Notes: generated by a model not told the origin, from the sequence alone. A DNA stretch of 64,000 nucleotides from an uncultured Candidatus Saccharibacteria bacterium (GCA_964531375.1 CAZHDO010000003.1:17983-81982); one strand, 5' to 3'; shown: positions 26,121 to 42,420, counted from the first letter of the stretch. Numbers and translations: made by a program.

Positions 26121-26612
26121 TTAATTGATTATAACTGCGCTACCCCCGGCTTTAATTTCTTCTTCACTATTTCTTTTATATTCTCTTCTCCAATATGTTT
26201 TAAGTACCATATCGAAAATCGATCTACTATTATGAACAAATAATTTTTCAATAGTGTCCAGTGCATCATCAACATCCGTGAAATTAATTACAGCCCCCAA
26301 TTCCTTCAATTTATCCAGAAGATTTAAAAAAGAATCTCTATCCTTTGTAAATCTTTTTGCGGAGCCGGCAATTATATAATATTTCTTTTCGCTATCTTTC
26401 AAATAAGAAAGGAGATCTTTTACACCCGGATTTTCCAGACAATTAAACGCTGAGCCACTTTCTATAAACACCTTTTCGACCTCACAACCTAACTCTTCCG
26501 CATACTCTCTAGCCCATTTCTCTTGAGCCTTTAAATATTCTGCATTTCTTAATGGATCTTTTATCCCGGCTCTACAATAAATTACAGCACTTCTTTTGAT
26601 CTCGTTTTCCAT
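26121..26612 (-). CDS. Resolvase N-terminal-domain-like protein lacking the catalytic serine
   Basis: AVIYCRAGIKD aligns to the YxRVSTxxQ core of serine recombinases but reads R-A-G instead of R-V-S-T. The remainder follows the resolvase alpha/beta pattern. There is no DNA-binding C-terminal domain. Confidence 0.35.
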   Translation of the reverse strand: MENEIKRSAVIYCRAGIKDPLRNAEYLKAQEKWAREYAEELGCEVEKVFIESGSAFNCLENPGVKDLLSYLKDSEKKYYIIAGSAKRFTKDRDSFLNLLDKLKELGAVINFTDVDDALDTIEKLFVHNSRSIFDMVLKTYWRREYKRNSEEEIKAGGSAVIIN

Positions 26613-26634: not shown

Positions 26635-27177
26635 TTATAAATTCCTTAATTCCGGATCGATATACGGAATTCCTAACATCTCAAAGAGGTCCTCTTCTTC
26701 TCTTACTTCATATTCATTAAGGACACCTTCTTCATCTTCTCTGGTCAAATATCCATCAACGCTTTTATACCCTCTCCTACACCAACCATTAGCCAATACT
26801 TTATGGCTATAATTGGAGGACCCAGTTCTGAGGGCAAAAGTTAATCCCCATCTATCTTCTTCGGTGAAAAATAAATCCAGAGCTATTCCTTCAGGCAACA
26901 TCCTTTGGGAATATCTACAGGGAAGCTCTCCTCTCACCTTTTCCCACCTATTAATAACCGAGGCTATTCCACTTTCGAATAATCCTATTTCATACGGTTT
27001 TGGAATCGCTACTATTTCTATATCACCGACCAAAGGCTTTTTTCTTCTTATACTTCCCGCAATTTCTGCTCTAATACAATGAGGACGGAGTAAATCCAAC
27101 ACCCTCAAAGCTATCTCATGAGCTTCCTCATAAGGGAACCTTTTTTCTACTTCATTCTTTTCTTCTTCTTTATTCAT
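26635..27177 (-). CDS. Minimal Pol X-family (Pol beta-like) nucleotidyltransferase, 180 aa
   Basis: The palm signature IAGSIRRKKPLVGDIEIVAIP matches the GS-x(9-13)-D-x-D/E pattern. The C-terminal MLGIPYIDPELRN resembles the conserved LGLPYIEPELRE of Pol X. The size is comparable to the smallest viral Pol X enzymes. Confidence 0.55.
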   Translation of the reverse strand: MNKEEEKNEVEKRFPYEEAHEIALRVLDLLRPHCIRAEIAGSIRRKKPLVGDIEIVAIPKPYEIGLFESGIASVINRWEKVRGELPCRYSQRMLPEGIALDLFFTEEDRWGLTFALRTGSSNYSHKVLANGWCRRGYKSVDGYLTREDEEGVLNEYEVREEEDLFEMLGIPYIDPELRNL

Positions 27178-27369: not shown

Positions 27370-28221
27370 CTATTTTGGGCTATTTCTTTTATGGGCGGAT
27401 ACTAGTTGCTCTATCAGCATATCGATATCTATTCCATTTTTTCGCAATTCTTCAACAGACACCTCTCTTCTAAAAAGAATATCTCTCTTGTTGCTTCTTT
27501 TTGGAAAAAAAGCTTTCAGTATCTGACCCTTGAATCCGAGACCATTTAACATATTTATAACTCTCTTGCTTTTTATTTCTTTCTTTATTTCCTGAGGAAG
27601 CTTTGCCAACTCAAGTTTCTCACCAGCATTGTCGTATAGATATTCAAAAAAAGTCATATTCTTTCCTGATGAATGCGGATAGCTAAGTAGACAGCCATTG
27701 ATCCAAATACCTCGTTCTTCTGTCGATACTTCAAATACTTTTGGAATATTGTAACCGGATGAATTCTTGCTTAATATTACTTCTGGTTTGTTGTCCGGTT
27801 CTCTAACAATAATGTTTTTATTATTTTCCATTTCCTCTTTGGCGACAAAAACAAGTTCTTTATATTTCACCTCAAAATCCTCTGCTAACTTTCGCAGATC
27901 TTCTTCATTTTTTCTAAATTCCGCAAAACGATTTTCTAGTTTAAGTTCCTCGTTCTTTTGATTAGAAAATTTGTAATGCTCTAAAAGAAAATCTCGTAAC
28001 GCATTAAAAGATTCGTTAAAAACTTTCCATGTGGAATTTATCTTAGAATCTGAGAACTGGGATAATATTTCACTTGACCAACTATCGTATTCTTGGAACA
28101 TCGCTAAATATCTTTCCACGGACTTTCCACTGGATAAAATCCGGATCAAGAATAATTCCACCTTCTGTTCTGGCAGTAGCTTTATAAATTTATTAAATCT
28201 TTCTTTATCTTCTAATATCAT
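27370..28221 (-). CDS. Hypothetical protein (283 aa); the last gene of the 13-gene block
   Basis: ORF only. It lies 12 nt downstream of the preceding gene. Confidence 0.4.
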   Translation of the reverse strand: MILEDKERFNKFIKLLPEQKVELFLIRILSSGKSVERYLAMFQEYDSWSSEILSQFSDSKINSTWKVFNESFNALRDFLLEHYKFSNQKNEELKLENRFAEFRKNEEDLRKLAEDFEVKYKELVFVAKEEMENNKNIIVREPDNKPEVILSKNSSGYNIPKVFEVSTEERGIWINGCLLSYPHSSGKNMTFFEYLYDNAGEKLELAKLPQEIKKEIKSKRVINMLNGLGFKGQILKAFFPKRSNKRDILFRREVSVEELRKNGIDIDMLIEQLVSAHKRNSPK

Positions 28222-28233
28222 GCATTTTTACTT

Positions 28234-28653
28234 TTACATCAACATTATTTCTGCAGTGCTCAATTCATCTTCTGCTTTTCTTTTGGCATCGATTGTATCC
28301 CAATTCAATAAGTGAATAGCTTCTACTAGCTCCGGGCGCATTCTCCAGTGTATAGCAGCCTCCTCAGGAAAATCAGCGAGAAAAGATACATTATAATTAG
28401 GATTCGGTAATTGATAATTCATCTGTTCGGCTATCTTTCCGGCTAATTTGCCGTATGGTAAGTTGGCATTAGAACCTCCAATTTTCCAACCCATTGCAGC
28501 TCCCATTATTTTAGAAGTAATTGTGTTGTCTGGAGAGAAATAATTCAATAGCAACATCCATCTTTCTTTATCTGTTAGAGGATTTTTCTTAAAATATTCA
28601 ACGAAGTCATTTACTGTTGGATAAGTTTTATTTCCTAATTCTTCTGATGTCAT
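28234..28653 (-). CDS. Hypothetical protein (139 aa)
   Basis: ORF only. It lies 7 nt downstream of the DUF2779-like gene. Confidence 0.4.
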   Translation of the reverse strand: MTSEELGNKTYPTVNDFVEYFKKNPLTDKERWMLLLNYFSPDNTITSKIMGAAMGWKIGGSNANLPYGKLAGKIAEQMNYQLPNPNYNVSFLADFPEEAAIHWRMRPELVEAIHLLNWDTIDAKRKAEDELSTAEIMLM

Positions 28654-28660
28654 ATTTTTA

Positions 28661-30160
28661 TTATTTATTATTAATCACCTCATTAAGTATCCTAAATATC
28701 TCAACCATAACAAATGTATCTTGTTTACAATATTCTTTAATCAGATATATTTTATTTGCTCGGTCTTTTGGCTCTTCTCCTTTATTAACAATATCTCCCC
28801 ACCAGACGAAACCTACATCATTACCAGTATATGGCAGATGGTCATAGGACATCTTGGGAAGTAATACGGTCATTACTGATTCTATCCCAGAACTACCTCC
28901 GAAATCTTTGTGGACATAATGCTGTTTTGAGAATACATCTCGAAGATCTTTCATTTGACGACAGATTCTGTTTAGGACTTTTTCGTATTTTGGAAGTCTA
29001 AGTCCGATCTCTTTGGTGACACCCTTCTCAAACGAAACATTCCAGGCAAGTACCGTACCCTTAGGGTCAACAATCTTTTCCAGTAGTTTTGCAACTGCTT
29101 CAGATGGGTCCGAATTCTCTTCGTGGAGATAATCTACATGGCGCAGTGGTCCGCCTTTCTGATCGATAATGTGCATTGAGAATTGAATAGGAATTCTTTG
29201 GTATGGTCTGAATCCAGAATATGCAGGTACTGCTGGGGCAAAGGTTTCGTAATCGAAGAAATAAAGAGGGTAAGTATATTCATCTAAAATATATGAGATC
29301 TCTTTCCTATCTATTATTTCTTCTTCTGTTTTGTGGGTATGAATTTGATTCTTTTGTGTCTCGGTAAAACCCTTGGTATCTGCTATCTCGTGCAAATGAT
29401 AAATACCATCTTTCACAAGCTTGGTCAGTTTTTTAGAAGTGATACGAGACAAATCGTGAATAGAATATTCCGGGAACTCCGGATGGGATATCTCGAAGGT
29501 GGCACAGTGACTTCTTCGTCCATAATAATGACAATCACATCCGACTGCCGGCTCTTTCGTTTGGTTCAGATATTCTTTAGCCTCTTCCATTTGTTTAGCA
29601 GTAGGAGCTTTCTTTGCAGAGACTTGATCGGTACTATCGTCAATTATAAAAAGCTTCTTAATATCTATCTCCCCATCACGAACATATTTATTATTTATAT
29701 GAACAATGAATTTTTTACCTATATCAATACCTGCCCGTTCCAAAACAATTACCTGAAAGGCAAGATCTGAAATATGATCTCTTGGCCCATCGTCATCTTT
29801 TTTTGAGCTCGAAGCTTTTACTTCATAGATATCCCATTTTTTAGTTTCAGAATTCCAAACAAGAAAATCACAACGGATTATATATCCATCAGCAACAAAT
29901 GTCGGCTGATAAATGGCCGGCACTTTTTGCGCCATAAGTTGCTCTATCTCTTTTGATGCCGAAAAATCATGATTCTTAACTTCAACGAAACCGGGAAATA
30001 ATCCCTTCGCATATTCCTCTACTGTATTCCCTTGATCCATTATATTCTGTTGCGACAGGGGTACTTCAAACTGTTCTAGTTCAGGTCTATTTAATCTAAA
30101 CCAAGCGTCCTTTGGACACATAAGATACTCAAGAAATCTGGATTTAGATATAAGTTTCAT
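28661..30160 (-). CDS. DUF2779-like nuclease: Cas4/RecB-type PD-(D/E)xK domain with Fe-S cysteines plus a C-terminal DEDD-like 3'-5' exonuclease region
   Basis: The N-terminus MKLISKSRFLEYLMCPKDAW is the DUF2779 hallmark. DGYIIRCDFLV...WDIYEVK gives the PD-(D/E)xK motif. CDCHYYGRRSHC together with the N-terminal Cys gives a 4-Cys cluster. FFDYETF is an Exo I-like DxE motif, and YCKQDTFVM is a Y-x4-D Exo III-like motif. Confidence 0.6.
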   Translation of the reverse strand: MKLISKSRFLEYLMCPKDAWFRLNRPELEQFEVPLSQQNIMDQGNTVEEYAKGLFPGFVEVKNHDFSASKEIEQLMAQKVPAIYQPTFVADGYIIRCDFLVWNSETKKWDIYEVKASSSKKDDDGPRDHISDLAFQVIVLERAGIDIGKKFIVHINNKYVRDGEIDIKKLFIIDDSTDQVSAKKAPTAKQMEEAKEYLNQTKEPAVGCDCHYYGRRSHCATFEISHPEFPEYSIHDLSRITSKKLTKLVKDGIYHLHEIADTKGFTETQKNQIHTHKTEEEIIDRKEISYILDEYTYPLYFFDYETFAPAVPAYSGFRPYQRIPIQFSMHIIDQKGGPLRHVDYLHEENSDPSEAVAKLLEKIVDPKGTVLAWNVSFEKGVTKEIGLRLPKYEKVLNRICRQMKDLRDVFSKQHYVHKDFGGSSGIESVMTVLLPKMSYDHLPYTGNDVGFVWWGDIVNKGEEPKDRANKIYLIKEYCKQDTFVMVEIFRILNEVINNK

Positions 30161-30163
30161 AAG

Positions 30164-31279
30164 CTATTTATCCCCATCATTTACCAACTTCGAAGTGACG
30201 GAGAGATTTTCAAGTTGTGCAATTCGTTCTTCTAATTTTTTGATTACTTCCTTGTCTTGTAAGATTATGCCCTTACTGGACAATTCTCTTACCTGCTTGT
30301 ACTTGTCATCAATTTCTTTTTCAAGCCTTTCGTTCGCCCTAAGAACTGAGTCGACCAATCTGAGTGTTAAATCATCCAAAACCTGACCATTTTCTCTTTT
30401 TGATTTATCTAACTCCTGTTTCGCTTTATCCTTTTCCGTACGATTTTTCTTTCCATCAATAAGTTTCCATTGGGCATACAGCACTACCAATCCCCCAAAA
30501 ATACCGCCGACTGCATTAGCAATAATTGGTGTATCGTTTGCTGTCCGCCATGCCGATTTCATATAATCAACAACATGGTATTTATCCCACAGATCAAATA
30601 TTATTTGTGGATCAAGATGCTGAAAAAAAGTGAGATCGATTGGTGACTTGCTTGTTATCTCACTTATGGATGTATACTTTTGTAAGTTTAAATCAAGATT
30701 TCTAGAATTTCTCATCCTAACTGTACGATATACACTTTTACTCAGGTCGTGGTAGTTACCATTTTCGTCGTACCTATCATCTCCTATTTTCGATGATTTA
30801 AATTTTGTGAGACTAATGCTGAGTTTAGATGCGTATTTAGTTCCAACCACACCTATTACACGTTCAACTTCAGGATGTTTTTTAAGAAATGGTTTAAATC
30901 TTTCTTCTATTTCACCTACATTCAGTGTTGCTTCTATCAAAACAAAAAAGATGTCGTTTTCAAACAACTCAGAAAGACCGTGTTCCTCAACCATCTTTCG
31001 ATATTCTCTTGCATGAAGATAACCTTTTTTCTTTGCGAACGATTCATTTAATTTACTAAATTTAGGTATCCCTTCACTAAGAATTTTTTCCAATAAAGTC
31101 TCCTTGTCTATCTTTATGGCAACAAAAAAGAGCAAAACATAAAATTGCATGTCTGCTTTTGTGGAATTTGCGATAGTATCTTTATAGAGAAAATTTACAA
31201 CCTCATCACGTAAATTAAGTAAGGAGAGATCTTTTAATCCCTTATCCTTTTCTTTAATTTTTACTTCTATCTTTTTCAT
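30164..31279 (-). CDS. Membrane-anchored coiled-coil protein (371 aa)
   Basis: It has a single TM helix (IIANAVGGIFGGLVVLY) followed by a long coiled-coil. Its start overlaps the Res stop (ATGA). Confidence 0.45.
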   Translation of the reverse strand: MKKIEVKIKEKDKGLKDLSLLNLRDEVVNFLYKDTIANSTKADMQFYVLLFFVAIKIDKETLLEKILSEGIPKFSKLNESFAKKKGYLHAREYRKMVEEHGLSELFENDIFFVLIEATLNVGEIEERFKPFLKKHPEVERVIGVVGTKYASKLSISLTKFKSSKIGDDRYDENGNYHDLSKSVYRTVRMRNSRNLDLNLQKYTSISEITSKSPIDLTFFQHLDPQIIFDLWDKYHVVDYMKSAWRTANDTPIIANAVGGIFGGLVVLYAQWKLIDGKKNRTEKDKAKQELDKSKRENGQVLDDLTLRLVDSVLRANERLEKEIDDKYKQVRELSSKGIILQDKEVIKKLEERIAQLENLSVTSKLVNDGDK

Positions 31280-34182
31280 ACATTCAGTAATACTGATACT
31301 GTAGAGCTAACTGTTATTTTTTCTGTTGGGACAATCACGTATCGCCACGGTTTTGCTATTCCATATTTACCAACATTCTTTGAAACTAACTCGCAATACT
31401 TATCTGCTGTTTTCTTTTTCTCTTGTATATCTAGATTGCCTATCTCCCCACTTGTTTTTACTTCAACCATTACAATTTCATTTTCAAATTCAACTATAAA
31501 ATCTGGCTCGTAGCGGTGTTGTGAATTGCCAAATTCGTCACGCCAATATAGTCCTTCAAATTGATTTGGGGCAGGTCGAAGCCAGTCTTCAACTGAACCA
31601 TCCCTGTCTAATAAATAAGCCAAACGTGCTTCGTCAGAGGAATCGAAACGATACATTGAGTGACAGGCCTTACTAAACCCCGTATAAATTCTATCTCTCG
31701 AAAAGCGATCAAATTGGGATTCTAGTGTGACAGGTTTCTCGTCAAAACTTCGGGAAATATTGTACTGTTCCAAATATGGTTTTGGTTCACGAATACCAGA
31801 CTCCAAATAGCCCTCGGACTTAAAATGTTTGTGATCCAATATTTGAGCGTATATTTCATTAGCTATTTGGCGTGTATTATTTTCTACCATCATCTTGAGG
31901 GTATTAACATCAGCCGTAAAAGATCTGTAGTATGTAGTCGCTTGTTTTGAAAGCTTGATCAACAATTCTTTCTGTTCATCGTAATCGATGAGAGGATGAT
32001 CGGAGTCAACTAAAACAGAAATGATCGTATTTTCAGGACTCTGAGCCCGACCCTCACCAAGACTCGATACGCGAGTAACTTCAGTCTCCCTACGTCCTTG
32101 ATGGGCAACACCAAATAAATCTTTTTCTTCTTTCCCCTGCAACGACTGCTCGAGTATTGAAGCTTCCGTAGCAAATCTACTTAATTTCTTTATATCCAAA
32201 TTAAAATCATCTATAACAAGCTCTCCATAGTGAGGTGTGAGCATTAACCTTGGAATAGGGATGTTACGAATCTCAATAGTTTCTTTAGAAATACGTCCGA
32301 TGCTCTCAAGCTCTTTTTTAGCAGGCTCACTTAAAATATTAAACAGTGAACTCTCTTCATATACAGTGCCACCAGTCTGCCCAACTCCTATTTTTCTTGC
32401 CTCATTCTTTGCGGTTATCTCCACAATTTCATTTACCTTATTTTGTATCGTTGCCACCTTAACATCCTCCGGGGTGTCTTCTCCTATAACAGCACTGACT
32501 GTTTTTGTCGCTTGCTCTTGGATTTCCTGCATTATCACCGGACTAGCCTTAATTTGATCCTGTATGCTTGTTACGAATGCCGACTGAACCTCAATAATTT
32601 CTTTTACTACTTTTGTATCATCAGTTGAAATACTTTCAATATTTGTTGGTTGAATAAGCTTAGAGTTGCGTGCTTCTTCAATAACTTTCGCGTAATTGTC
32701 ATGGGCAACAATCATCACACGATCTACTTTTTTGTTTCCAGTTTTTTCCCCGTATGGTAGACGGAGACCTCGGCCAATTGTTTGTTCAGTTAAAATCTGT
32801 GCAGCCGAAGATCGTATTGGTGCAATGGTATAAATATTAGAAACATCCCAACCCTCCTTAAGCATGTTCACGTGGATAACAATTTCTACAATATTATCAG
32901 GATGTTCAAGTGATATTAATTTTTCAATCGTTTCATCTGCTTCATCTCCCCTTGTTTTTGTATGAACCTCAATCACCCTTCCCTTATAGACACCGCCCCT
33001 AAAATCATCACTATCAATTAGTTTACGGAGCGCGCTGGCGTGGGCTGTATCTTTGGCTACTACAAGCATCACGGGCTTCACCTCCTGCTTATCATTTTCG
33101 AGCGCATAATCTTTTAAAGCTAACTTTGCTCGTTCGTGGAAAAAAGCGGCGAGCTGTAATTTACGAGCGTCTGTTTCTATAGATTCAGCGTCCAAATGAC
33201 TAAAATCGACATCAGCTTCCGTGCCAATCCATGGATCTTTCACATACCCATCACGAATAGCATCACCGAGATTATAGACATAGAAGATGTTTTTCTTGAG
33301 AACAAGTTCCGCACCCCTCCTTGTAGTAGTTGGGGCAAGATATGGCGTAGCGGTAAATTCAAGTCCAAATAACGGATCAATACGGTCAAGAGAACTCATT
33401 GCAGCATCGGCGTGATAGTGATGCGATTCATCCATCAACACAACCAGATCATCGAGTGACGCTAGGTGATCAAAGTAAGATAAAAGCCTCCCGTCTTCTA
33501 CTCCAAAAATTTCCGAACCTTTTGTAATACCCTTTTCCTTTTCTATATCTTTTTGTGCAAACTGCTGAATATTAAAAATATTTATTTCAATCTTATTTGC
33601 AAAGAGTTGTGCCGTTCGGCTTTGCACGTAGTTTTCTTTAATGATAATTTTTACATTTGAAGTAGTAAGTTCTTCAATCCCACGGAAAACATATTTGGGA
33701 TTATTGGCTTTGCTAAAATCATCTACCAGTTTACGGTAGATGGTATTACCCGGAGCAACAATCAAAAAATGTTGAACGCCATAAACAAGATAGAGATATG
33801 TCACAAAAGCACCCATGAGACGAGTTTTTCCCACACCAGTGGCAAGAGCGAAAGTATATGCTGGAAAGGTTCGTTCAAAAGCCTGAAATTGCTTCAATCC
33901 AGGGATTGTGTGCGTGTATTCTTTTGTCGCTTCTTCGATATCACTAACACTCCCACGGTTCCCCCTCTTCATTCTTGCTAATACTTTTTTACCAGCATCC
34001 CCCTCTAGAAAATCAGCGAAAAAATGCAAACTTTTTTCTTGCGGAGTTCGCAGGCTCATTGTGTTAGTTATATATTGTAGGGCTTGTTCTTTTTTCATAT
34101 TATTATTCATCAGAATCACTTTCTTCTTCAATTTCTTCCATTGCCCGCTCTTTAATAGGAAGTAGATACTCTTTCTTTCCAA
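31276..34182 (-). CDS. res: Type III restriction enzyme Res subunit (SF2 helicase plus C-terminal PD-(D/E)xK endonuclease)
   Basis: It has a motif I ATGVGKT, a motif II LMDESHH, and a C-terminal YEPDFIVEF...VMVEVK nuclease motif. The likely true start is the ATG at 34110 or 34098, overlapping or abutting the Mod stop. At about 940 aa it is typical of Type III Res. Confidence 0.75.
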   Translation of the reverse strand: MERKSIYFLLKSGQWKKLKKKVILMNNNMKKEQALQYITNTMSLRTPQEKSLHFFADFLEGDAGKKVLARMKRGNRGSVSDIEEATKEYTHTIPGLKQFQAFERTFPAYTFALATGVGKTRLMGAFVTYLYLVYGVQHFLIVAPGNTIYRKLVDDFSKANNPKYVFRGIEELTTSNVKIIIKENYVQSRTAQLFANKIEINIFNIQQFAQKDIEKEKGITKGSEIFGVEDGRLLSYFDHLASLDDLVVLMDESHHYHADAAMSSLDRIDPLFGLEFTATPYLAPTTTRRGAELVLKKNIFYVYNLGDAIRDGYVKDPWIGTEADVDFSHLDAESIETDARKLQLAAFFHERAKLALKDYALENDKQEVKPVMLVVAKDTAHASALRKLIDSDDFRGGVYKGRVIEVHTKTRGDEADETIEKLISLEHPDNIVEIVIHVNMLKEGWDVSNIYTIAPIRSSAAQILTEQTIGRGLRLPYGEKTGNKKVDRVMIVAHDNYAKVIEEARNSKLIQPTNIESISTDDTKVVKEIIEVQSAFVTSIQDQIKASPVIMQEIQEQATKTVSAVIGEDTPEDVKVATIQNKVNEIVEITAKNEARKIGVGQTGGTVYEESSLFNILSEPAKKELESIGRISKETIEIRNIPIPRLMLTPHYGELVIDDFNLDIKKLSRFATEASILEQSLQGKEEKDLFGVAHQGRRETEVTRVSSLGEGRAQSPENTIISVLVDSDHPLIDYDEQKELLIKLSKQATTYYRSFTADVNTLKMMVENNTRQIANEIYAQILDHKHFKSEGYLESGIREPKPYLEQYNISRSFDEKPVTLESQFDRFSRDRIYTGFSKACHSMYRFDSSDEARLAYLLDRDGSVEDWLRPAPNQFEGLYWRDEFGNSQHRYEPDFIVEFENEIVMVEVKTSGEIGNLDIQEKKKTADKYCELVSKNVGKYGIAKPWRYVIVPTEKITVSSTVSVLLNV

Positions 34183-35800
34183 ATTGGCACGCTTTCAAAA
34201 TTGACTGTGGTATTTTCTTAATAGTTATACGACCATCCACCTTTTCACATCCAGGTTCAAATTTCTTTGGACAAATAAGTAACGTCTCGTTGAAACCTAA
34301 ATGGCTCACAATCTGTTGGACCATCGCTACAGATAACATTTGTGTAGTTATATAAATACTATTGTTGCCTTGGCCCTTGCCATGTTTCCGATAATCAGAC
34401 GGACTTGGAGCGAACGTGTAGTTGGTAAGCTTACACATAGCGCGAATAAGCTTAGTGTCATTGTAATAGCTATCAATCACAGGATTACCAAATTCATCAA
34501 TTACTACAAAGCTTGGCGCCAGCTCGTAAAACTTAAATCCACCTCCTCCGTGCCAATTCACAGCTTCGCTGATTCCATTAGGATCTTCGGCGTCAACGAC
34601 TGCCTTCATTCGTTTATGCACGTGCGAATAAGCGTGATCTCCCATTTCTATCCCAATATAATTAAAATTCATTTTATGAGCTACTGCCGTTGTTGTGCCT
34701 GAGCCAAGAAACGAATCCAGAATCCAATCCTTACTAGACAAATTTGCTATTTCAAAAAAAGTCTTAATAAGCGATTCTGGTTTTTTAGAGTTTCGAAATT
34801 CAACCACACCTTCATATCCAACACGGTTGAAAGCTGCAGAAGCATCAAAAAAGGATGGATACGGAAGTTCTTTTGACGAAATTCGTGTTTGGGGTACTCC
34901 TTGAAAATAATTACCATTTTTCTTTTTAATATTTTCTGGTGAAAGAAAATATCTGTGGCCAGTTCCGTCATCTCCCATATTAGGGACCTCGTACAAAACA
35001 TTATGACCATCACTTTGAAGTCGTCCTTCAATATGAGCAACATAAAATCTACCACTACTGTTTCCTTCTCTTAACCCACCTCGAATATTAATCTTCTTAA
35101 GTCCAGTTTTATTTCCATCTGAACGGGTTAATTCATACTCACCAAATTTAAAAACATGACACTCCTTATTTCCCAGCAGAAGTTTTTCTCCGGCTCCAAT
35201 TGTTTTTACAGTCCATTCATAACCTTCATACGGATCAGCCGTGACCAACTGTTTTCTTTTTGAAATATTAAATTGATTTGTTTTTTGATAACAGTGTACA
35301 TATTCAGCGACATCGTGAATATCTTTGTCTCCCTTCAACATTCGCTCTGAGTGTCTAACTTTTATAATAAACGACGTAATAAAATTGTTTCTTTGGAAAA
35401 CTTCATCTAATAGGACTTTCAGATATGCTTGCTCTCCATTATCAATTTGTACAAAAATTACCCCATCATCCTTCAAAAGCATTCTTAACAACTCCAATCT
35501 AGGCCTCATAAGTGAGAGCCAAGTACTATGTTCCACACTGTCATCATAATGTTCAAAAGCATTACCGGTATTGTATGGGGGGTCAATATAAATGCATTTT
35601 ACTTTTCCTTCATACTCAGGAAGAAGCGCTTTTAGAGCGAGTAGATTGTCACCATGAATAATCATATTCTCCGTATCTTTGTCGCCATAGGACAAATCAG
35701 TTCGTTCTTCCAAAATGCGTGGTTCAATGTTAGCAATATCATACTCAGGATTATTCTTCCCGATCCATGTAAGCTCTAGTTTTTGTTTGTTGTTTGACAT
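34103..35800 (-). CDS. mod: Type III R-M Mod subunit (beta-class N6-adenine / N4-cytosine DNA methyltransferase)
   Basis: Motif IV IYIDPPYNTG precedes motif I LDSFLGSGTT, which is the beta-class permutation. The gene lies immediately upstream of, and is coupled to, res. Confidence 0.8.
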   Translation of the reverse strand: MSNNKQKLELTWIGKNNPEYDIANIEPRILEERTDLSYGDKDTENMIIHGDNLLALKALLPEYEGKVKCIYIDPPYNTGNAFEHYDDSVEHSTWLSLMRPRLELLRMLLKDDGVIFVQIDNGEQAYLKVLLDEVFQRNNFITSFIIKVRHSERMLKGDKDIHDVAEYVHCYQKTNQFNISKRKQLVTADPYEGYEWTVKTIGAGEKLLLGNKECHVFKFGEYELTRSDGNKTGLKKINIRGGLREGNSSGRFYVAHIEGRLQSDGHNVLYEVPNMGDDGTGHRYFLSPENIKKKNGNYFQGVPQTRISSKELPYPSFFDASAAFNRVGYEGVVEFRNSKKPESLIKTFFEIANLSSKDWILDSFLGSGTTTAVAHKMNFNYIGIEMGDHAYSHVHKRMKAVVDAEDPNGISEAVNWHGGGGFKFYELAPSFVVIDEFGNPVIDSYYNDTKLIRAMCKLTNYTFAPSPSDYRKHGKGQGNNSIYITTQMLSVAMVQQIVSHLGFNETLLICPKKFEPGCEKVDGRITIKKIPQSILKACQFGKKEYLLPIKERAMEEIEEESDSDE

Positions 35801-35808
35801 AATTATAA

Positions 35809-36387
35809 TTATTTTAGATGTGGACGAAGGAATATCTCGATTTCTTTTATAGCACCATCTACCTTTTTTGAAAACTCATCATTAACTCCAATGTTATATA
35901 TAATACTATCAGTACTATCACTAGAGCGTCCATCTAAATATAAACTTAGTCCGCTATATAGCTCTCTTACTAATGCATCTAGATTTAATTGTGCTTTCGT
36001 TGCCTCAGACCCCCATGATACTTCTGCTTCAAGTAATTCGGCTTCAAGATTTGTCCAAGCTTCTCTCACTTTATTCCATCGAACTGAATATACAGCCCTA
36101 TTCATCTTTTGATTGTCACTATATTCCTCTGCTTTAAATCCATTAACCTCAAGAGCCGACTGCATTTCGCCCAATGGAATGAAGGGGTTTCTCACAAATT
36201 TTATAGCATCTCTTAATTTTAGAGAGGCCTTTAGATACTTTCTGGCAATCTCGTAGTTTGTTTTTCCCATCATCTGCTTCCTCCACCCAACTAATCCAAA
36301 AATGGCAACCCCAGCTACAATAACAGCAGATATAGATGTTATAGAATTTGCGACAGTATTAAATATGATTTCTGTACTTGTAGACAT
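35809..36387 (-). CDS. Small membrane protein (192 aa) with an N-terminal TM helix and a helical C-terminal domain
   Basis: It has a TM segment SITSISAVIVAGVAIFGLVGW. It lies 2 nt after the SNF2 stop and 8 nt before the mod start. Confidence 0.45.
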   Translation of the reverse strand: MSTSTEIIFNTVANSITSISAVIVAGVAIFGLVGWRKQMMGKTNYEIARKYLKASLKLRDAIKFVRNPFIPLGEMQSALEVNGFKAEEYSDNQKMNRAVYSVRWNKVREAWTNLEAELLEAEVSWGSEATKAQLNLDALVRELYSGLSLYLDGRSSDSTDSIIYNIGVNDEFSKKVDGAIKEIEIFLRPHLK

Positions 36388-36389
36388 AA

Positions 36390-39300
36390 CTATATTATCT
36401 TCCAGCTTATGGTGAATAATATTTCTAACTTCGATCTTTGTTTTAACTGAGCCTCTACTTTCTTCAACAAATCCTCTTTTTTTAATTCAACCTCATCCTG
36501 TGCCTCGTATAATTTTCTACGCATTTCATTTCTTTTTTTCTCAGAATCCTTTATTTCCCGTTGAGCTTTAAGTTTATCATCAAGGTCAATAATTTTCTTA
36601 GCATTTGTCTTGGCTGCCTTAATATCAATATCAAGCTTTCTCAAATCAAGTTCGAGAGCTTTCTTTACATCTTCTGACCAATTATCCAGTTTATCCACTT
36701 CGTCATCAAAAAATTCTGCATTCCTTTGCATAATTTGTCCTGAAATTACCGAGATATTTTGATTTTCAAGCTCTTCTATTTTTTTGCGTGCCTCAGGTGA
36801 AAATATTTTTGGTGTAACCGACTGTGCAGAAAGTGAAAATAACTTTTTTATACTGTCCGATTCGATTGACTCCCCTGTTTCATTAATAGCAGACACAACG
36901 ACAGCATCTTCTGATTCAAAAGCTTCAACTGTATAATTTGAGACTTTTAACATTCCGCTTTTACCAACCAGTGGTTCTAGTACAGAAATAATTGATGAGT
37001 GATTTGAGTAATCAAAAACAATCTCTGCTTCATCAACTTGTTTGTTTTTTACTTCATTCAAAATCCTCTGTGCTAAAGAGTGTCCGGGGCGATACACGTG
37101 AGCATCTTCTACATTTTTACCGATTTTATATGGACCCTGATCGATATCCTCGTTTGGAAATGGATTGGTTTTAAGAGAAAAAGAATATTCGTGATCGGAA
37201 AAATCAGCATTATCACCCAAATAGTAACGAGTAACATCCCACAACCAGCGATTATATGTGTCCAAATAGGCTTCGCCTTCTTTTTTATTGATCTTTAATT
37301 TTTCATGCACCTCCGCATCGAAATTTTCTAAGAGCTTCTGTCGAGTGTCGGATAAGTTACTTTTTATACTCTCGTCCATTTCTTCCTGAAGTTTATCAAA
37401 GGCAATATTGATGTCTTCAGACGTTCTGCATGTTTGATAAATACCGGCTATGCGTTTTTCGAAATCGACACCGGACTCAATAGATCCTAACACTTCATCA
37501 CTCGCACCGAACACACCTTTAAACAATTTGAATTTCTGATCCAACAGTTCATATACACGCTGGTCTGCTGCGTTTTTTCTATTAACAAAGTTGATTACGA
37601 CGACATCGTGTTTCTGACCATAGCGATGACAGCGACCAATACGTTGTTCAATTCTTTGTGGATTCCACGGTAAATCATAGTTAATTACCAAAGAACAAAA
37701 TTGTAAATTAACACCCTCAGCTCCCGCCTCAGTGGCGATCATAATTTCTGCTTCATCTCTAAAATATTCAATGAGTGCCGCTCGAGTATCAGCTGTTTTT
37801 GAACCAGTTACTTTGTCAGTGTCCTTATTTCTTGCAAGCCAACTTTTATATATCTCTTTTGATTTTTCATCGTTATTTGAACCGTTAAACAAAACAATTT
37901 TATCCTTATATCCATTATTAGCGAGGAGGGTCTCAGCAAGATATCGTTGTGTGATAGTAGATTCAGTGAAAATTATAGCTTTCTTTTTAGCACCCAACTC
38001 AGCAGTCATCTCAAATCCTTTTTTTAGTGCAGTAATTAAGGCATCTCCTTTGGAGTTCGTGTATATTTTCTGCGCGAGATTACGGAATTTTTCCAGATCA
38101 GCTTTTTCCTGCTCCATGAGTACAATATCTTTCTCTGTGAGAGCTTTCTTTTCCTTCTCATCTTCATCGTCTTCGCTCTCCTCATCATCAATCCATTCAT
38201 CTGATATTTCTGGAAGAGCTTCGAAATCTTGAAGGAGCGAAATAGTACCATCATCTTGTTGTGGTATTTTTGCTTTTGTGTCCACGATCAACTGCCTGAG
38301 CTTATATACCAGCTTATCTAATGTACTAGCGATAGCGAAGGAAGACGATGCCAAAAGCTTTCTCAAGATGAGTGTCATGAGCTGACGCTGACTAAAAGGT
38401 AAAGCGTAGAGCTTTGCCCGCTGAAGATACTCGGACATACCATCATAAAGTTGAACTTCCTGTTCGGTTGGAATATAGTCTTGCGTTATTGGTTTTCGCT
38501 CTGTGTAATTGATATATTCTAGTACTTGGCGACGGAGTGTACGGATACAAACAGGTTTTAGGCGATTGCGTAAATCAACGAACATTTCCTGTTTGGGCTC
38601 AAGAAGACCAACTTCGTTTTCATATATATCTTGCTCACGGGAAACTCTTGCATAATTTGCTTTAAAACTTTTAAGATCCCCGAATACATGATCATCAATA
38701 ATACTAACAAGTCCATAAAGTTCGAGAAGGGAGTTTTGTAATGGGGTCGCAGTAAGTAAAATTTTCGGTACTTCTTCTAATGCTTTCTTTATCTCTTGCG
38801 CAATTTTATTGCTTTTTTTATATACATTGCGTAAACGATGTGCTTCATCAATAACCGCTAAATCCCATTTTGTTTGTTTTATATATGAAGATTTAGATCG
38901 AGCAAAGTGATAAGAACAAATAATTATTTTGTCTTCTTGATTAAATGGATTCAGGTTTCCGTCTTTTATATATTGATTAAAAGATTTTGCCTCAAGAATT
39001 ATCGAAGGTAAAAAGAATTTCTCCGAAAGTTCATCGTTCCATTGTTTTCGTAAGCTCGAAGGGACAATCAAAAGAATACTCCTCTTTCTCTCAGCCCATT
39101 TTTGAGAAAGAACTAACCCGGCCTCAATAGTTTTTCCAAGACCAACCTCATCAGCTAAAATTGCGCCCTTCGAAAGCGGTGAGCGAAAAGCAAAAAGGGC
39201 CGCCTCAATTTGGTGTGGGTTTAGGTCTACTTGAGCATTAGATAGTGTAGAAGAAAGTTTTTCCAAACTATTGGAAGAACATCGTTTTGTCAGCTCATAA

Positions 39301-39419
39301 GCAAAATATTTAGCGTGTTGGGCGGTTATTTTCATTTTGCCAGTATACAATAAAGAGGCGGAAAAATCGCCTTGAAAGAATGGCGTTTGTATTTTACAAA
39401 CCTCGCTTTCTATTCCCAA
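36390..39419 (-). CDS. SNF2-family (SWI2/SNF2, RapA-like) helicase with a C-terminal coiled-coil extension
   Basis: Motifs: I ADEVGLGKT, II DEAHRLRN, III LLLTATPLQNSL, VI RIGRCHRYGQ. The roughly 350-aa C-terminal extension ends in a coiled-coil. The track start is a TTG. An in-frame ATG, MKITAQHAKYF, at 39335 is the more likely start. Confidence 0.8.
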   Translation of the reverse strand: MGIESEVCKIQTPFFQGDFSASLLYTGKMKITAQHAKYFAYELTKRCSSNSLEKLSSTLSNAQVDLNPHQIEAALFAFRSPLSKGAILADEVGLGKTIEAGLVLSQKWAERKRSILLIVPSSLRKQWNDELSEKFFLPSIILEAKSFNQYIKDGNLNPFNQEDKIIICSYHFARSKSSYIKQTKWDLAVIDEAHRLRNVYKKSNKIAQEIKKALEEVPKILLTATPLQNSLLELYGLVSIIDDHVFGDLKSFKANYARVSREQDIYENEVGLLEPKQEMFVDLRNRLKPVCIRTLRRQVLEYINYTERKPITQDYIPTEQEVQLYDGMSEYLQRAKLYALPFSQRQLMTLILRKLLASSSFAIASTLDKLVYKLRQLIVDTKAKIPQQDDGTISLLQDFEALPEISDEWIDDEESEDDEDEKEKKALTEKDIVLMEQEKADLEKFRNLAQKIYTNSKGDALITALKKGFEMTAELGAKKKAIIFTESTITQRYLAETLLANNGYKDKIVLFNGSNNDEKSKEIYKSWLARNKDTDKVTGSKTADTRAALIEYFRDEAEIMIATEAGAEGVNLQFCSLVINYDLPWNPQRIEQRIGRCHRYGQKHDVVVINFVNRKNAADQRVYELLDQKFKLFKGVFGASDEVLGSIESGVDFEKRIAGIYQTCRTSEDINIAFDKLQEEMDESIKSNLSDTRQKLLENFDAEVHEKLKINKKEGEAYLDTYNRWLWDVTRYYLGDNADFSDHEYSFSLKTNPFPNEDIDQGPYKIGKNVEDAHVYRPGHSLAQRILNEVKNKQVDEAEIVFDYSNHSSIISVLEPLVGKSGMLKVSNYTVEAFESEDAVVVSAINETGESIESDSIKKLFSLSAQSVTPKIFSPEARKKIEELENQNISVISGQIMQRNAEFFDDEVDKLDNWSEDVKKALELDLRKLDIDIKAAKTNAKKIIDLDDKLKAQREIKDSEKKRNEMRRKLYEAQDEVELKKEDLLKKVEAQLKQRSKLEILFTISWKII

Positions 39420-39479
39420 AAGATACTGGACATTTCCTCATTTAACACCCCAACAAAAAGAAGAGGGGTTCTACGATTT

Positions 39480-41240
39480 TCAATCCAATTCCTTGTAGTC
39501 CACTTTTAAGAATCGGTTTCTCCTGTTGAAACTGGCTCTCGTATGCTCCTTTATTTTTAGTTTAATTTGTTTTTGCCTTTCTTCGTTCTCGATCTTATCC
39601 CTATTAAGAGTGAGAATATATTGAAAATTTGTTTTAACCTCCTGTTCGGCTAAGAAGTTTAAACTCTGAACCAGTGTATCCTGATCAACATCAAATATAT
39701 TATCGTGTATTAGAAACATTGGATGCCTTTTGTTTGTGTCTTTGTTGAGCATTAAGCTTATGTCGTAGATGAATACTTTGGTTCTATCAACACTGTGACT
39801 ACCATCGTCCGGTATTCTCAAGTCCAATTTGACAATCTGTTTACTAGACGCTTTATTTACTGTCGATATGTCAAAAGAAACCCCTGCGTTTCCCATAATA
39901 TACTCATTTATTTCTGCAATTGTTTTATTGAAATCCTTAATAACCTTACTTATCTCGAATATCTTTGCATCTAGCTCAGAAAACAGATTGTCTTTTTTAA
40001 TTCTCAAGATAACCACTTCACGATTAATTCTTTCAAATTCGTCTAGATTAGCTTGAGTGGTAGCGTATTCATCCTTTTTCTTCGTATAAGTATAAAAACC
40101 TTCTTTTAAGATACTAAGTGAATCATTTTTATCGACATGAATAAGGAGGTCAGCTCTTTTTTCATCCAAAGAATTAAGCTCTTCTTGAATTTTTTGAACC
40201 TCTGACCTTACTTCATCGGCCCTCTCATTTATAAGAAGATTTTGATATTTCTCAATCTTCTTTTTAAAGTCCAAAATTTCATTTATTGACTTGGAAACGA
40301 TCTCGCCTAGACCCGCCTTAAATTTATCGTAAACAATCTGAATGTCACTCGTATTTATATTTTCTACCTTAGGCATAGACTCAATGCGCCTAAGCTCATA
40401 CTTTAAAGCAATCTGTCTCGTTCTAAGTTTTTCTATATTAGAATCTATTTTAACTAATATATCTTGGTTCTGTTGGAAAATTGGTTCAACTCTAAATTTA
40501 TCCAGAGAATCTCCAGCCCTAGATAGCTCCAATTCAAGAGCGTTAAGTTCCGCCTTAACATCAGATATTTTTTTCTTCCCTGAATCCGTTATTCTTTTCT
40601 TAATATGACCTTGTGTTTGAGATTTTTCTTCAATCTCCTTAATAATCTTCTTCATTTCCTTAACAAGAAGAGGGTTAATACCAAAGAGGTATAAATGTGT
40701 CTTAACTAGATCCGAATTCGGAATTTTTTCTCTAAGATCATAACAGTTTACGATATCCTTAAATTCTGAGTTTTCGTCTCTAATCAGTGGGCCTATAAGT
40801 TCTCTAAAACTTGGTCTGTCTAATTTATCTTCCTTATTTTTTTCATAAAAAAGATTAGTCAAATACAAAAGGGCATCGTTCGTGTTTTTATACAAACTAA
40901 TATCACCATCCACTTCTATTGACGGTTTGTCCGGGTCATTTATTGTCCGTTCAATCGTCACTTTTTTGCCGTCTATTACTAAGTCCAAACAAATTCTTGT
41001 ATCATAAGAAAACTTATCGAAAGGAATCTTGGTCACACGACTAGAATCGGCATCTTTAAAGAGACAAAAATTAATAAATTCAACCGACATTGATTTTCCT
41101 ACTCCATTAGTTTTTTTATCTTTACGGGGTCCTGATTTCGCTTCAGAAACTTTTTCACCTAAAATAAGGTTAACACCTTCTCTAAATTCAATAGGATCAA
41201 AAGTTGGCGGTATTGAGTATAATTTTAGTATTTTAATCAT
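39480..41240 (-). CDS. ABC/SMC-like ATPase with a long coiled-coil insert (DUF2326-like; ABC-3C-type ATPase candidate)
   Basis: It has an N-terminal P-loop KTNGVGKS, about 250 aa of coiled-coil, and a C-terminal Walker B/D-loop region PMFLIHDNIFDVDQDTL. Confidence 0.6.
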   Translation of the reverse strand: MIKILKLYSIPPTFDPIEFREGVNLILGEKVSEAKSGPRKDKKTNGVGKSMSVEFINFCLFKDADSSRVTKIPFDKFSYDTRICLDLVIDGKKVTIERTINDPDKPSIEVDGDISLYKNTNDALLYLTNLFYEKNKEDKLDRPSFRELIGPLIRDENSEFKDIVNCYDLREKIPNSDLVKTHLYLFGINPLLVKEMKKIIKEIEEKSQTQGHIKKRITDSGKKKISDVKAELNALELELSRAGDSLDKFRVEPIFQQNQDILVKIDSNIEKLRTRQIALKYELRRIESMPKVENINTSDIQIVYDKFKAGLGEIVSKSINEILDFKKKIEKYQNLLINERADEVRSEVQKIQEELNSLDEKRADLLIHVDKNDSLSILKEGFYTYTKKKDEYATTQANLDEFERINREVVILRIKKDNLFSELDAKIFEISKVIKDFNKTIAEINEYIMGNAGVSFDISTVNKASSKQIVKLDLRIPDDGSHSVDRTKVFIYDISLMLNKDTNKRHPMFLIHDNIFDVDQDTLVQSLNFLAEQEVKTNFQYILTLNRDKIENEERQKQIKLKIKEHTRASFNRRNRFLKVDYKELD

Positions 41241-41464
41241 TTTTTATAGATATATGGCTCAGCAAATTCGACTATCCCTGCCTGATACAAAAAAATAAGG
41301 GAAAATATAACCTGTCTGTGATTTATCGTGCCTAATTCCTGTTTCAAATTTACAAAAATTTCATCTAACATTAACTTTTGTTCTTTCGCTTTTGAAATCT
41401 TTTTTAAAATCAAAAAGCCGAGATAAGGTGAAGATGTTTTAATTTTTTCATCTTTACTAATCAT
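41237..41464 (-). CDS. Small alpha-helical protein (75 aa), a candidate middle component of the three-gene ABC ATPase module
   Basis: It is coupled by 4-nt overlaps to both of its neighbours. Confidence 0.4.
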   Translation of the reverse strand: MISKDEKIKTSSPYLGFLILKKISKAKEQKLMLDEIFVNLKQELGTINHRQVIFSLIFLYQAGIVEFAEPYIYKK

Positions 41465-42420
41465 TTCTCATTTGGAAATACATTGCACTTAATAAGCTCA
41501 TCTAATAGATAAAACCTTATCGCCAGATAATCGTGTTTTTTACCCTTATTACTAATCTCGCTTGAAAAATACTCAGTTAGATTATCAAGGGCCTTTTTAG
41601 GATCACCGTCGGCTTGAGTTAAAAAGATATCGCTTTTAATTCTTAAGAAATTTCGTATAAAATCAATTTTTACAGAATCAAGACCTAGTTTTTCATCCAC
41701 CTCACTGCGAGCCAGAGAATATCTCGGCAACAAATCAATTATCTGAGATTTTAAAAACTTTGATTTATCTGCAAACCGATACTCAATCTTGTGGCCCGGA
41801 TCCGGTTCCTCTGTCCAATTCTTATCGCTTATTTCTTTATTATTACTCAAGAAGACAACAAGATCAGCAATCGTCTCTACCTCATTCGTTAGGACCTGTT
41901 CAGATTTACGATCCTTTTGACTATCAAACTCATCTCTCAAAAGATCATGTATCTCTCTTATTTTTGAAGCATCAAGCGGCCTAATCACCTTAACTAATTT
42001 TGACAAGGTTATAATATCTTCATTTTGATCGAAAGACACATTCTTGGGACCCTTGATTTTTGCCTTAAAATTAAGTTTCTTCGTTGTTATTATTAAGAAT
42101 TTTAAAGAGTCAAATTTAGAAGAGAGTCCACTGTCTTCGAATTTTTTTATTGTTTCCTTAATTTTCTTAAGAGTAGTTTCCGATGTAACTTGGAATGAAA
42201 TCTTTCTTGCTCCATCACCCAGGTCAACAGATGGGAAACTCGACTTAAGTATATTTAAATTAACTAGATTTAAATCAAAAACCTTATTCAATAATTTACA
42301 AAAAACATCTTCTAAAAAGATATTTATATCTGTAAGCCCGTTGCTATTACTATTCTTAGTCGATGATTCAATACGAGAAAAGTAATCAATTATTTGATTG
42401 ATAAGATTTTGATTCTCCAC
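41461..42420 (-). CDS. Hypothetical protein (319 aa); the first gene of the block and a candidate sensor/effector partner of the ABC ATPase
   Basis: It overlaps the 75-aa gene by 4 nt. I recognised no catalytic motif. Confidence 0.4.
   Translation of the reverse strand: MENQNLINQIIDYFSRIESSTKNSNSNGLTDINIFLEDVFCKLLNKVFDLNLVNLNILKSSFPSVDLGDGARKISFQVTSETTLKKIKETIKKFEDSGLSSKFDSLKFLIITTKKLNFKAKIKGPKNVSFDQNEDIITLSKLVKVIRPLDASKIREIHDLLRDEFDSQKDRKSEQVLTNEVETIADLVVFLSNNKEISDKNWTEEPDPGHKIEYRFADKSKFLKSQIIDLLPRYSLARSEVDEKLGLDSVKIDFIRNFLRIKSDIFLTQADGDPKKALDNLTEYFSSEISNKGKKHDYLAIRFYLLDELIKCNVFPNEK

Follow-up and report, generated by a model that had tools for sequence, protein, structure and literature searches.

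Do six tightly packed genes on one strand of a bacterial genomic island make up a single defense system, or a smaller conserved unit accompanied by optional genes? This question is raised by positions 28661-39419 of a 64,000-nt stretch of DNA from an uncultured Candidatus Saccharibacteria bacterium (GCA_964531375.1 CAZHDO010000003.1:17983-81982). We refer to the whole stretch as the window and use its coordinates throughout; genes were also called on the source metagenomic contig. An initial annotation had described the locus as a six-gene composite reminiscent of DISARM, in which the two genes of a Type III restriction–modification (R-M) system, Mod and Res, stand together with an SNF2 helicase, a DUF2779 nuclease, and two membrane proteins. 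Our analysis points to a different partition: the locus is probably a three-gene Type III-like R-M cassette (SNF2, Mod, and Res) that resides in a recombinase-bearing island and is joined there by three optional genes.

SNF2, Mod, and Res form a conserved unit

We scanned one genome per species for relatives of the window SNF2 protein and obtained 77 other loci, many of them from metagenome-assembled genomes. Related loci, designated here by L-numbers, came from similarity searches with proteins of the window itself, and their open reading frames (ORFs) were called in bulk by a mechanical procedure. The SNF2 loci span more than 15 phyla, with taxa that include Patescibacteria, Gamma- and Alphaproteobacteria, Bacteroidota, Planctomycetota, Omnitrophota, Chlamydiales, and Myxococcota; cultured Bacteroidota are represented by Algoriella, Empedobacter, and Bacteroides intestinalis. 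Gene order was counted in the 50 SNF2 loci whose sequence extends 5.5 kb or more downstream of the gene. SNF2 was followed by Mod and then Res on the same strand in 48 of them by ORF clustering and in 49 by tblastn. The core neighbor clusters were found at 63, 52, and 50 loci, and the next most common neighbor at only 10.

The association was equally evident when approached from Res. A tblastn search of 72,556 plasmids with the window Res recovered 23 full-length homologues, and an SNF2 gene lies directly upstream of Mod-Res in every one of them. For example, the order is HTH / SNF2 / IS256 / Abi / hypothetical / Mod / Res on Salmonella pR18.1595_113k (HTH, helix-turn-helix gene), HTH / SNF2 / 1046-aa methylase / 1120-aa Res on Escherichia coli pEC316_2, and HTH / SNF2 / Mod / DUF262 / Res on Rhizobium p7. 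Besides Salmonella and E. coli, plasmids of Klebsiella carry the cassette, and in E. coli CFSAN064036 it occupies an integrase-bearing island at tRNA-Sec. Among 5,426 complete E. coli genomes, 30 carried the HTH–SNF2 segment of the Salmonella-/CFSAN064036-type cassette. The neighborhood comparison called for by the initial annotation thus came out in favor of a link between SNF2 and Type III mod-res in other genomes, and SNF2-Mod-Res is a unit inherited together across phyla and on conjugative plasmids.

Organization of the locus

The ORFs of the window and the gene calls on the source contig agree on six minus-strand genes, in the order that had been proposed. The three core components are an SNF2-family ATPase (981 aa, 36390-39335), Mod (565 aa, 34103-35800), and Res (940 aa, 31276-34098). 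A 192-aa protein (35809-36387) is encoded as a passenger in the slot between SNF2 and Mod. A second passenger, the "tail" gene for a 371-aa protein (30164-31279), overlaps the end of Res by 4 nt, and the DUF2779 protein (499 aa, 28661-30160) is a facultative neighbor outside the core. From SNF2 to DUF2779 the junctions measure 2, 8, 4, -4, and 3 nt, in line with the earlier statement that all are 8 nt or less, or overlapping.

Two start sites required revision. The SNF2 ORF stays open up to a TTG at 39419, which had been given as its start; the ATG at 39335 is the most likely start and yields 981 aa, the length of the homologues. Similarly, Res most likely begins at 34098 (940 aa) rather than at 34182, and does not overlap Mod. 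In both cases the longer version came from taking an upstream TTG codon, and the homologues are all shorter.

Could the close spacing itself mark out a six-gene unit? According to the source-contig calls, the same-strand array runs past DUF2779 with gaps of 7 and 12 nt into two further genes, encoding 139 aa (28234-28653, minus strand) and 283 aa (27370-28221, minus strand). Since equal spacing continues into these genes, the six are not set apart by it, and in a compact Patescibacteria genome tight spacing is no evidence of a functional unit. Our profile searches covered the cassette genes and their neighbors with PADLOC, ten window proteins with NCBIfam (the six of the cassette and four neighbors), and, with Pfam, all ORFs from 450 aa upward and the majority of those from 230 aa upward; outside this range of coverage were several smaller ones, chiefly in the housekeeping flanks. 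Neither the 139-aa nor the 283-aa gene matched a Pfam, PADLOC, or NCBIfam model.

Upstream of SNF2, a 144-nt intergenic region (39336-39479, minus strand) is the likely promoter region of the cassette. A promoter-like site at 39419-39391 is a consensus match only, and the scan for promoters and terminators was uninformative, with fewer promoter-like sites in the real sequence than in shuffled sequence.

Protein components of the core

The SNF2 protein combines the Pfam domains PF00176 (SNF2-rel_dom) and PF00271 (Helicase_C), and its motifs are intact (GLGKT65, DEAH163, QRIGRCHRYGQ564). Its best profile matches are DrmD models, in each case with the helicase core alone aligned: 700 bits against PADLOC DrmD (PDLC02619) and 699.8 bits against NCBIfam DISARM_DrmD_b (NF038318), whose equivalog cutoff is 950. 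Members of the SNF2 family score about 650-706 bits on PDLC02619, always over the helicase core only. In PADLOC, the window protein also matches BrxHI|BrxHII (212 bits) and HmaA (183 bits), and the nearest solved relative of the core is RapA (E about 1e-38). In annotated plasmids and the E. coli island, relatives are labeled only "SNF2-related protein" by the Prokaryotic Genome Annotation Pipeline (PGAP).

The remaining C-terminal region of SNF2 (about residues 640-981), some 330 aa that end in a coiled coil, is specific to the family. A profile search against PDB sequences found no relative of this domain. In a library of 1.84 billion proteins it matched 1,777 clusters (50% identity) at E<=1e-3, 215 of them at E<=1e-30, and the matches typically lie at the C-terminal end of proteins with a length of about 940-1,010 aa. 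The best 120 SNF2 homologue clusters in a collection of 5.8 billion proteins are all at least 75% identical and about 981 aa long. On viral contigs, SNF2 gave two matches.

Mod carries PF01555 (E = 7e-34), scores 434 bits against PADLOC MTase_III (PDLC03636), and matches solved structures of Type III Mod proteins (6k0w and 4zcf). With DPPY73 preceding FLGSG364, it has the motif order of the beta class, as initially proposed, and is predicted to be a Type III methyltransferase acting on N6-adenine (or N4-cytosine). Res, which also scores 434 bits against its PADLOC model (REase_III, PDLC03648), joins a ResIII domain to a C-terminal Tn7_TnsA-like_N nuclease of the PD-(D/E)xK type. The motifs GVGKT88, DESH223, QTIGRGLR, and PD...EVK 865-881 are intact, so that the attribution to Res of a PD-(D/E)xK domain of its own holds. 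Its match to EcoP15I Res (4zcf_C) is weak (E = 5e-5).

The cassette exchanges Mod-Res pairs and takes up genes at its junctions

Across the related loci, the SNF2 family is partnered by the PADLOC methyltransferase families MTase_III 03636, 03646, and 03634 and by the endonuclease families REase_III 03648, 03654, and 03647. SNF2 proteins remain 70-90% identical while paired with at least four different Mod/Res subfamilies. For example, the SNF2 proteins of L008 and L038 are both 90% identical to that of the window, whereas their Res proteins are 83% and 36% identical, respectively. A nearly constant SNF2 beside such different Res proteins indicates that SNF2 has recombined with different Mod-Res pairs.

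The junctions between the core genes vary as well. Where empty, the SNF2|Mod and Mod|Res junctions measure 3-25 nt; the former is filled in 19 of 48 loci and the latter in 6 of 48. The genes found there encode RhuM, Bro-N, Schlafen/AlbA_2, DUF4145, PDDEXK_3, DUF3644, AAA_15 ATPase, DUF262, and Abi proteins, as well as several small membrane proteins, and insertion sequence (IS) elements also occur. Both junctions therefore serve as slots into which unrelated genes insert. In about 14 of 68 related loci, SNF2 has a small HTH gene of the excisionase type in front of it. This gene is present in L008, L010, L050, L066, and L168 and on plasmids; tblastn detected no trace of it anywhere in the window.

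The accessory genes are optional

The 192-aa and 371-aa proteins matched no Pfam, PADLOC, or NCBIfam model. At 90% identity their families comprise 91 and 104 clusters, respectively, mostly from Patescibacteria, and both are absent from the viral contigs searched. Neither gene was found at any of the 77 other SNF2 loci, 48 of which have a complete cassette, even with hidden Markov models (HMMs) of the two families.

Searches with the two proteins themselves led to other settings. The 192-aa gene occupies the same SNF2|Mod slot in a close relative (L171). In two Type I-like operons (L007 and L170) it lies between M and S, directly upstream of the S gene, in the company of RhuM, DUF3800, and NYN passengers, and in L005 and L006 it stands alone. 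The 371-aa gene directly follows Res in another close relative, of the order HTH-SNF2-Mod-Res (L168, 7230-11104). It also directly follows the GmrSD_N-HNH nuclease of a Type II-like system (L169, 8893-11110) and a TIR (TIR_2) gene (L001, 9308-11125). Downstream of all three types of gene the spacing is 7 nt or less, or the genes overlap, which suggests that the 371-aa family is a portable "tail" gene attaching to defense effectors. Elsewhere it stands alone beside HEPN and Fic genes (L004) or, within a conjugative element (L002), is broken into two ORFs. The presence of both families in unrelated operons, or alone, marks them as recurrent but facultative passengers of defense operons.

Of the two membrane proteins initially annotated, one retains that description. 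In the 192-aa protein, a four-helix bundle comes after an N-terminal membrane anchor that is kept across the family (median hydropathy 2.06). In the 371-aa family, however, only 8 of 59 members reach the threshold of 1.6 over the hydrophobic stretch, and the AlphaFold (AF2) model of the 371-aa protein is a compact alpha/beta fold (pLDDT 88, pTM 0.87) with no structural relative in PDB or BFVD. The protein, previously labeled as a transmembrane coiled-coil protein, is thus probably not a membrane protein and looks soluble, with an orphan alpha/beta fold in its model.

The domain assignment of the DUF2779 protein was upheld, with a PF11074 match of 129 bits and a weakly Cas4-like N-terminus (30 bits against the PADLOC Cas4 model; 23 bits against TIGR00372, with a cutoff of 65). 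By inspection, we located Cys15, C208/C210/C219, D98...E113-V-K115, and DYE303; there is no CRISPR context. A Cas4-like PD-(D/E)xK N-terminal half and an RNase-H-like/DEDD C-terminal half are predicted. The family was described in a 2026 study as a fusion of a Cas4-like region with an exonuclease region that is quasi-essential in JCVI-syn3.0 (PMC13621843). A 506-aa RNase_H_2 protein encoded after an R-M operon in L007 was considered as a DUF2779 homologue and rejected, as BLASTP found no similarity.

The linkage of DUF2779 to Type III mod-res, in turn, did not extend to most other genomes. Of 48 cassettes, 7-8 (about 15%) have a DUF2779 gene within 10 kb; it adjoins Res in five, in two of them on the opposite strand, and the arrangement SNF2-Mod-Res-DUF2779 occurs in L066, L092, L013, and L040. 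In the reverse test, a Type III Res or SNF2 was near 7 of the 80 loci retrieved with the window DUF2779, and near only one of its eight closest relatives (56-69% identity). Its upstream same-strand neighbors include dnaG-rpoD (4 loci), ResIII, Type I M/S/R, DpnII, GmrSD, and Fic genes, and further reverse transcriptases, SIR2, ABC-three-component (ABC-3C) proteins, and relaxases. DUF2779 is a promiscuous gene enriched in defense and mobile contexts, and not a dedicated partner of the cassette.

A second type of Cas4-like nuclease came to light in the same comparison. A small PDDEXK_1 protein of about 250 aa is encoded one or two genes after Res in 10 of 48 cassettes (downstream in L015, L017, L021, L022, L026, L036, L037, L038, and L064; upstream in L055). 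Further downstream, a Trypsin_2-domain protein is encoded in L015, L017, and L021 (right after PDDEXK_1) and in L053 (after DUF2779). The PDDEXK_1 nuclease and the Trypsin_2 protein may constitute another facultative accessory set.

The cassette resides in a recombinase-bearing island

In the window, the cassette belongs to an island of about 22-45 kb with two serine-recombinase genes and housekeeping genes on both sides; YchF marks the return of the latter below about 22.3 kb and H+-PPase at 49.3 kb. Mobile-element genes, all on the minus strand, occupy one end. They encode two serine recombinases, one large (22143-23705) and one described by its resolvase domain (26121-26612), together with a DnaA-like ATPase (24294-24959) and a small protein with a match to the pol-beta thumb (26635-27177). 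At the far edge are a ClpP-like SDH-type serine protease (42614-43606, plus strand) and an S49 peptidase (44149-44997). No tRNA genes were found in the window, and none mark the island ends. Serine recombinases are likewise encoded in the flanks of related loci, as are tyrosine integrases and proteins of conjugation.

Directly upstream of the cassette (39480-42420, minus strand) lies a tight three-gene module with 4-nt overlaps. It encodes an SMEK_N protein (41461-42420), a 75-aa ORF (41237-41464), and a DUF2326 protein (39480-41240) that matches the PADLOC candidate PDC-M68B with 191 bits. This module looks like an ABC-3C conflict system.

On pEC316_2 of E. coli (L086, 9001-18521; HTH-SNF2-Mod-Res at 29496-39248 of NZ_CP018955.1), both Mod (1046 aa, MTase_III 03646) and Res (1120 aa, REase_III 03654) are giant. 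The cassette lies there a few kb downstream of the IncF leading-region genes parB-psiB-psiA, across two IS elements.

A possible mechanism and alternative explanations

How might the three core proteins act together? Judging from Type III enzymology, Mod would hemimethylate a short asymmetric site, that is, modify it on one strand, and so mark self DNA. When Mod-Res meets unmodified sites, ATP hydrolysis by Res would allow long-range communication, upon which the PD-(D/E)xK domain of Res would cut the DNA. The least certain step is that of SNF2, which may be a double-strand DNA translocase. As it tolerates exchange of the Mod-Res pair, it would serve Mod-Res generically, and would most likely load or activate Mod or Mod-Res on DNA, or clear bound proteins ahead. 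For loading, the parallels are the DrmD-DrmMI pair and the ATPase-dependent methyltransferase loading of MANTIS. The passengers would probably add a second layer of defense, or may simply exploit expression of the operon, and DUF2779 may process DNA ends. A more far-reaching proposal, which we put forward tentatively and hold to be somewhat less than an even chance, is that SNF2-Mod-Res is a distinct, unnamed class of ATP-dependent R-M system. In such a class, the DrmD-related SNF2 would be an obligatory third subunit for methylase loading or cleavage licensing, and the SNF2|Mod junction would be a docking site for swapped second-line defense genes, including the two new families.

Four other explanations deserve consideration. 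That SNF2 and Type III mod-res are chance neighbors might be expected where defense islands pack unrelated systems, and an ABC-3C-type module does lie directly upstream in the window; yet the same order and strand recur at 48-49 of 50 loci across phyla, and the reverse search agrees in 23 of 23 plasmid cases. The linkage in both directions excludes a chance juxtaposition, and we assign this explanation virtually no probability. The reading of the initial annotation, one dedicated system of six co-evolved genes, draws on their common orientation, on the junctions of 8 nt or less, and on partial recurrences: SNF2-192aa-Mod-Res in L171, SNF2-Mod-Res-371aa in L168, and SNF2-Mod-Res-DUF2779 in the four loci named above. 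It is nevertheless very unlikely. All six genes occur together at no other locus, the 192-aa and 371-aa genes are missing from the 77 other SNF2 loci even in HMM searches, and both families turn up alone or in unrelated operons. Whichever side the search starts from, DUF2779 and the cassette show no linkage in about 85-90% of cases, and the strand of DUF2779 is sometimes the opposite one. Equally tight spacing also runs into two more unrelated genes. The proposed composite of six genes did not, in short, survive comparison with other genomes. Still less probable, in our view, is a class 1 DISARM variant in which Res has replaced DrmA, DrmB, and DrmC. The DrmD models are indeed the best SNF2 profile matches (700 and 699.8 bits), and in both systems an adenine methylase gene comes after the SNF2 gene. 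Against such a variant, none of the ORFs scanned, among them all those from 450 aa upward, encodes a member of the DrmA, DrmB, and DrmC triplet, and the methylase is a PF01555 Type III Mod rather than a pfam13659 DrmMI. The DrmD_b score, too, covers the helicase core only and stays under the cutoff of 950, and PGAP speaks of an "SNF2-related protein".

The last alternative accepts the three-gene unit and concerns what SNF2 does in it: SNF2 would serve establishment or self-protection rather than attack. When a mobile element enters a new host, it would speed the scanning of DNA by Mod, so that both host and element DNA become methylated before Res accumulates, or it would remove stalled Mod-Res from self DNA. 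We consider this a live but less probable alternative, with several circumstances in its favor. The cassette is nearly always carried by mobile elements (plasmids, integrase- or recombinase-flanked islands, and a position near psiB/psiA on pEC316_2), and an excisionase-type HTH regulator lies upstream in about 20% of loci. RapA, the nearest solved relative of SNF2, recycles stalled RNA polymerase. In addition, methylation is ATPase-dependent in MANTIS, and an SNF2 dependence has been proposed for DarB-like methylases (PMC5512222). On the other side, classical Type III systems need no helper of this kind to become established, and SNF2 opens the operon and is not a separately regulated early gene.

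The three-gene cassette with optional genes, which we favor, faces objections of its own. The census is biased toward this SNF2 clade, as its loci were found via the window SNF2. Res has a complete ATPase itself, so that a second motor is not obviously needed, and a role of SNF2 in methylation or restriction is something we infer with low confidence. The recurrence of the 371-aa gene (L168) and of the 192-aa gene (L171), each once in the cassette of a close relative, makes an adaptive, cassette-related role of these genes possible. Likewise, DUF2779 and PDDEXK_1 by our impression lie near Res more often than chance would suggest, and a loose link in function between the cassette and nucleases of the Cas4 type is possible.

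The three-gene cassette offers the simplest setting in which to probe SNF2 ATPases of the DrmD type, as they are paired here with a well-understood Type III enzyme, and its occurrence on Salmonella, Klebsiella, and E. coli plasmids makes it tractable in model organisms. It also exposes a gap in annotation: PGAP names Mod and Res generically, and automated tools would label only these two, as Type III. A widespread three-component system is thus probably being miscounted as ordinary Type III R-M. The variable slots, finally, provide a practical route to new accessory defense genes.

Comparison with known systems

The system invoked by the initial annotation, DISARM, has a core of the DrmA helicase, DrmB (DUF1998), and DrmC (PLD) (10.1101/2021.12.28.474362; PMC9142583). 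Class 1 adds DrmD and a pfam13659-type DrmMI that methylates a non-palindromic site, and joint deletion of drmD and drmMI nearly abolished protection against one phage (10.1101/2021.12.28.474362). The window shares with class 1 an SNF2 core related to that of DrmD and the succession of SNF2 gene and adenine methylase. It differs in its methylase, which is a PF01555 Type III Mod and not a DrmMI, in its effector, a Type III Res, and in an SNF2 protein with a family-specific C-terminus and a score below the DrmD_b cutoff. PADLOC found no DrmA, DrmB, or DrmC in the cassette or its neighbors, and Pfam no DUF1998 or PLD domain in the scanned ORFs, confirming the absence of DrmB and DrmC already noted from the sequence. 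The description "DISARM-reminiscent" is therefore apt as an analogy, with an SNF2 core beside a methylase that would act on adenine in an asymmetric site, and not as a statement of membership. Distant SNF2 relatives in L081-L083, examined as candidates for genuine DISARM loci, proved instead to belong to a DUF499 / DUF1156-methylase / PLD-helicase system. In Desulforhopalus vacuolatus (L083, 2584-11974) this unrelated system is followed by an AbiEi gene.

Other systems with helicases or ATPases resemble the locus less. PADLOC and Pfam detected no BREX PglZ, BrxC, or PglX-type methylase in the cassette, its neighbors, or the other large ORFs of the window, and the initial annotation was right to regard PglZ and BrxC as missing. 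To RapA/BrxHII-type ATPases the likeness of the window SNF2 is confined to the ATPase core; it lacks the RapA-like N-terminal extension, and no BREX genes lie nearby. Of the Hma system, PADLOC matched neither the methylase HmaB nor the AAA+ ATPase HmaC, and SNF2 scores 183 bits against the SNF2 helicase HmaA compared with 700 against DrmD. Zorya markers were absent from the PADLOC and NCBIfam scans.

A connection to MADS was suggested by PGAP, which names the upstream HTH of enterobacterial cassettes "MAD1" (L174, 16001-16201, in E. coli CFSAN064036; L085, 6232-6432). The label derives from NF047737, a 49-residue model that the protein matches with 83.5 bits at a cutoff of 80, and no other MADS gene accompanies it. 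MADS is defined by other genes: MAD6, MAD7, and MAD8 are mandatory, and no helicase is mentioned (10.1101/2023.03.30.534895). We rejected the link as a borderline match of a generic excisionase-type HTH model; the label probably reflects over-annotation of a systematic kind. Of the ten window proteins searched, none matched a MADS model of NCBIfam, and a MAD1-like HTH is missing from the window.

A parallel in operation is MANTIS (formerly Gao_RL), in which an AAA+ ATPase (MtsA) is required to load the methyltransferase, asymmetric sites are hemimethylated, and a separate helicase-nuclease effector prefers inverted sites (10.64898/2026.09.23.753747). The BREX-related "BR" systems use RapA-like SNF2 helicases (PMC12839542). 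MANTIS and BR systems differ from the window in their components (a PglX-like methylase, the AAA+ ATPase MtsA, and other partners), which had no PADLOC match among the window proteins, and the resemblance is one of logic, not homology. The interruption of R-M operons by unrelated defense or toxin genes is known from Type I hsd loci with their PrrC, RloC, RhuM, and Abi-type passengers. In the PrrC paradigm, such a guard fires when the R-M system is inhibited. Here the host operon is Type III-like, and the 192-aa and 371-aa families are not homologous to the Type I passengers.

In the literature that we searched, no system of SNF2 with Type III R-M is described. The relevant items were two: a general remark that, on mobile elements, coupling with adenine methylases is widespread among SWI2/SNF2 ATPases (PMC5512222), and a Cronobacter island given as an uninterpreted gene list (PMC12757443). 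Within the model libraries and literature searched, no published system model matches the locus end to end, in agreement with the initial impression that this architecture is not a described system.

The closest known relatives remain the Type III systems EcoP1I and EcoP15I. As in these, mod lies upstream of res on the same strand (here with a 4-nt gap), Mod is a PF01555 beta-class protein with DPPY before FxGxG, and Res unites a superfamily 2 (SF2) ATPase with a C-terminal PD-(D/E)xK domain; the PADLOC Type III models and the EcoP15I chains match. At the level of sequence, Mod and Res have what identifies a Type III R-M system. The window departs from the Type III pattern in a Res only distantly related to that of EcoP15I, in an operon with two insertion slots, and above all in the SNF2 gene of about 980 aa that stands immediately upstream in essentially every relative. 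The conservation of SNF2 with this Mod/Res clade, seen in both directions, speaks against a simple two-gene system.

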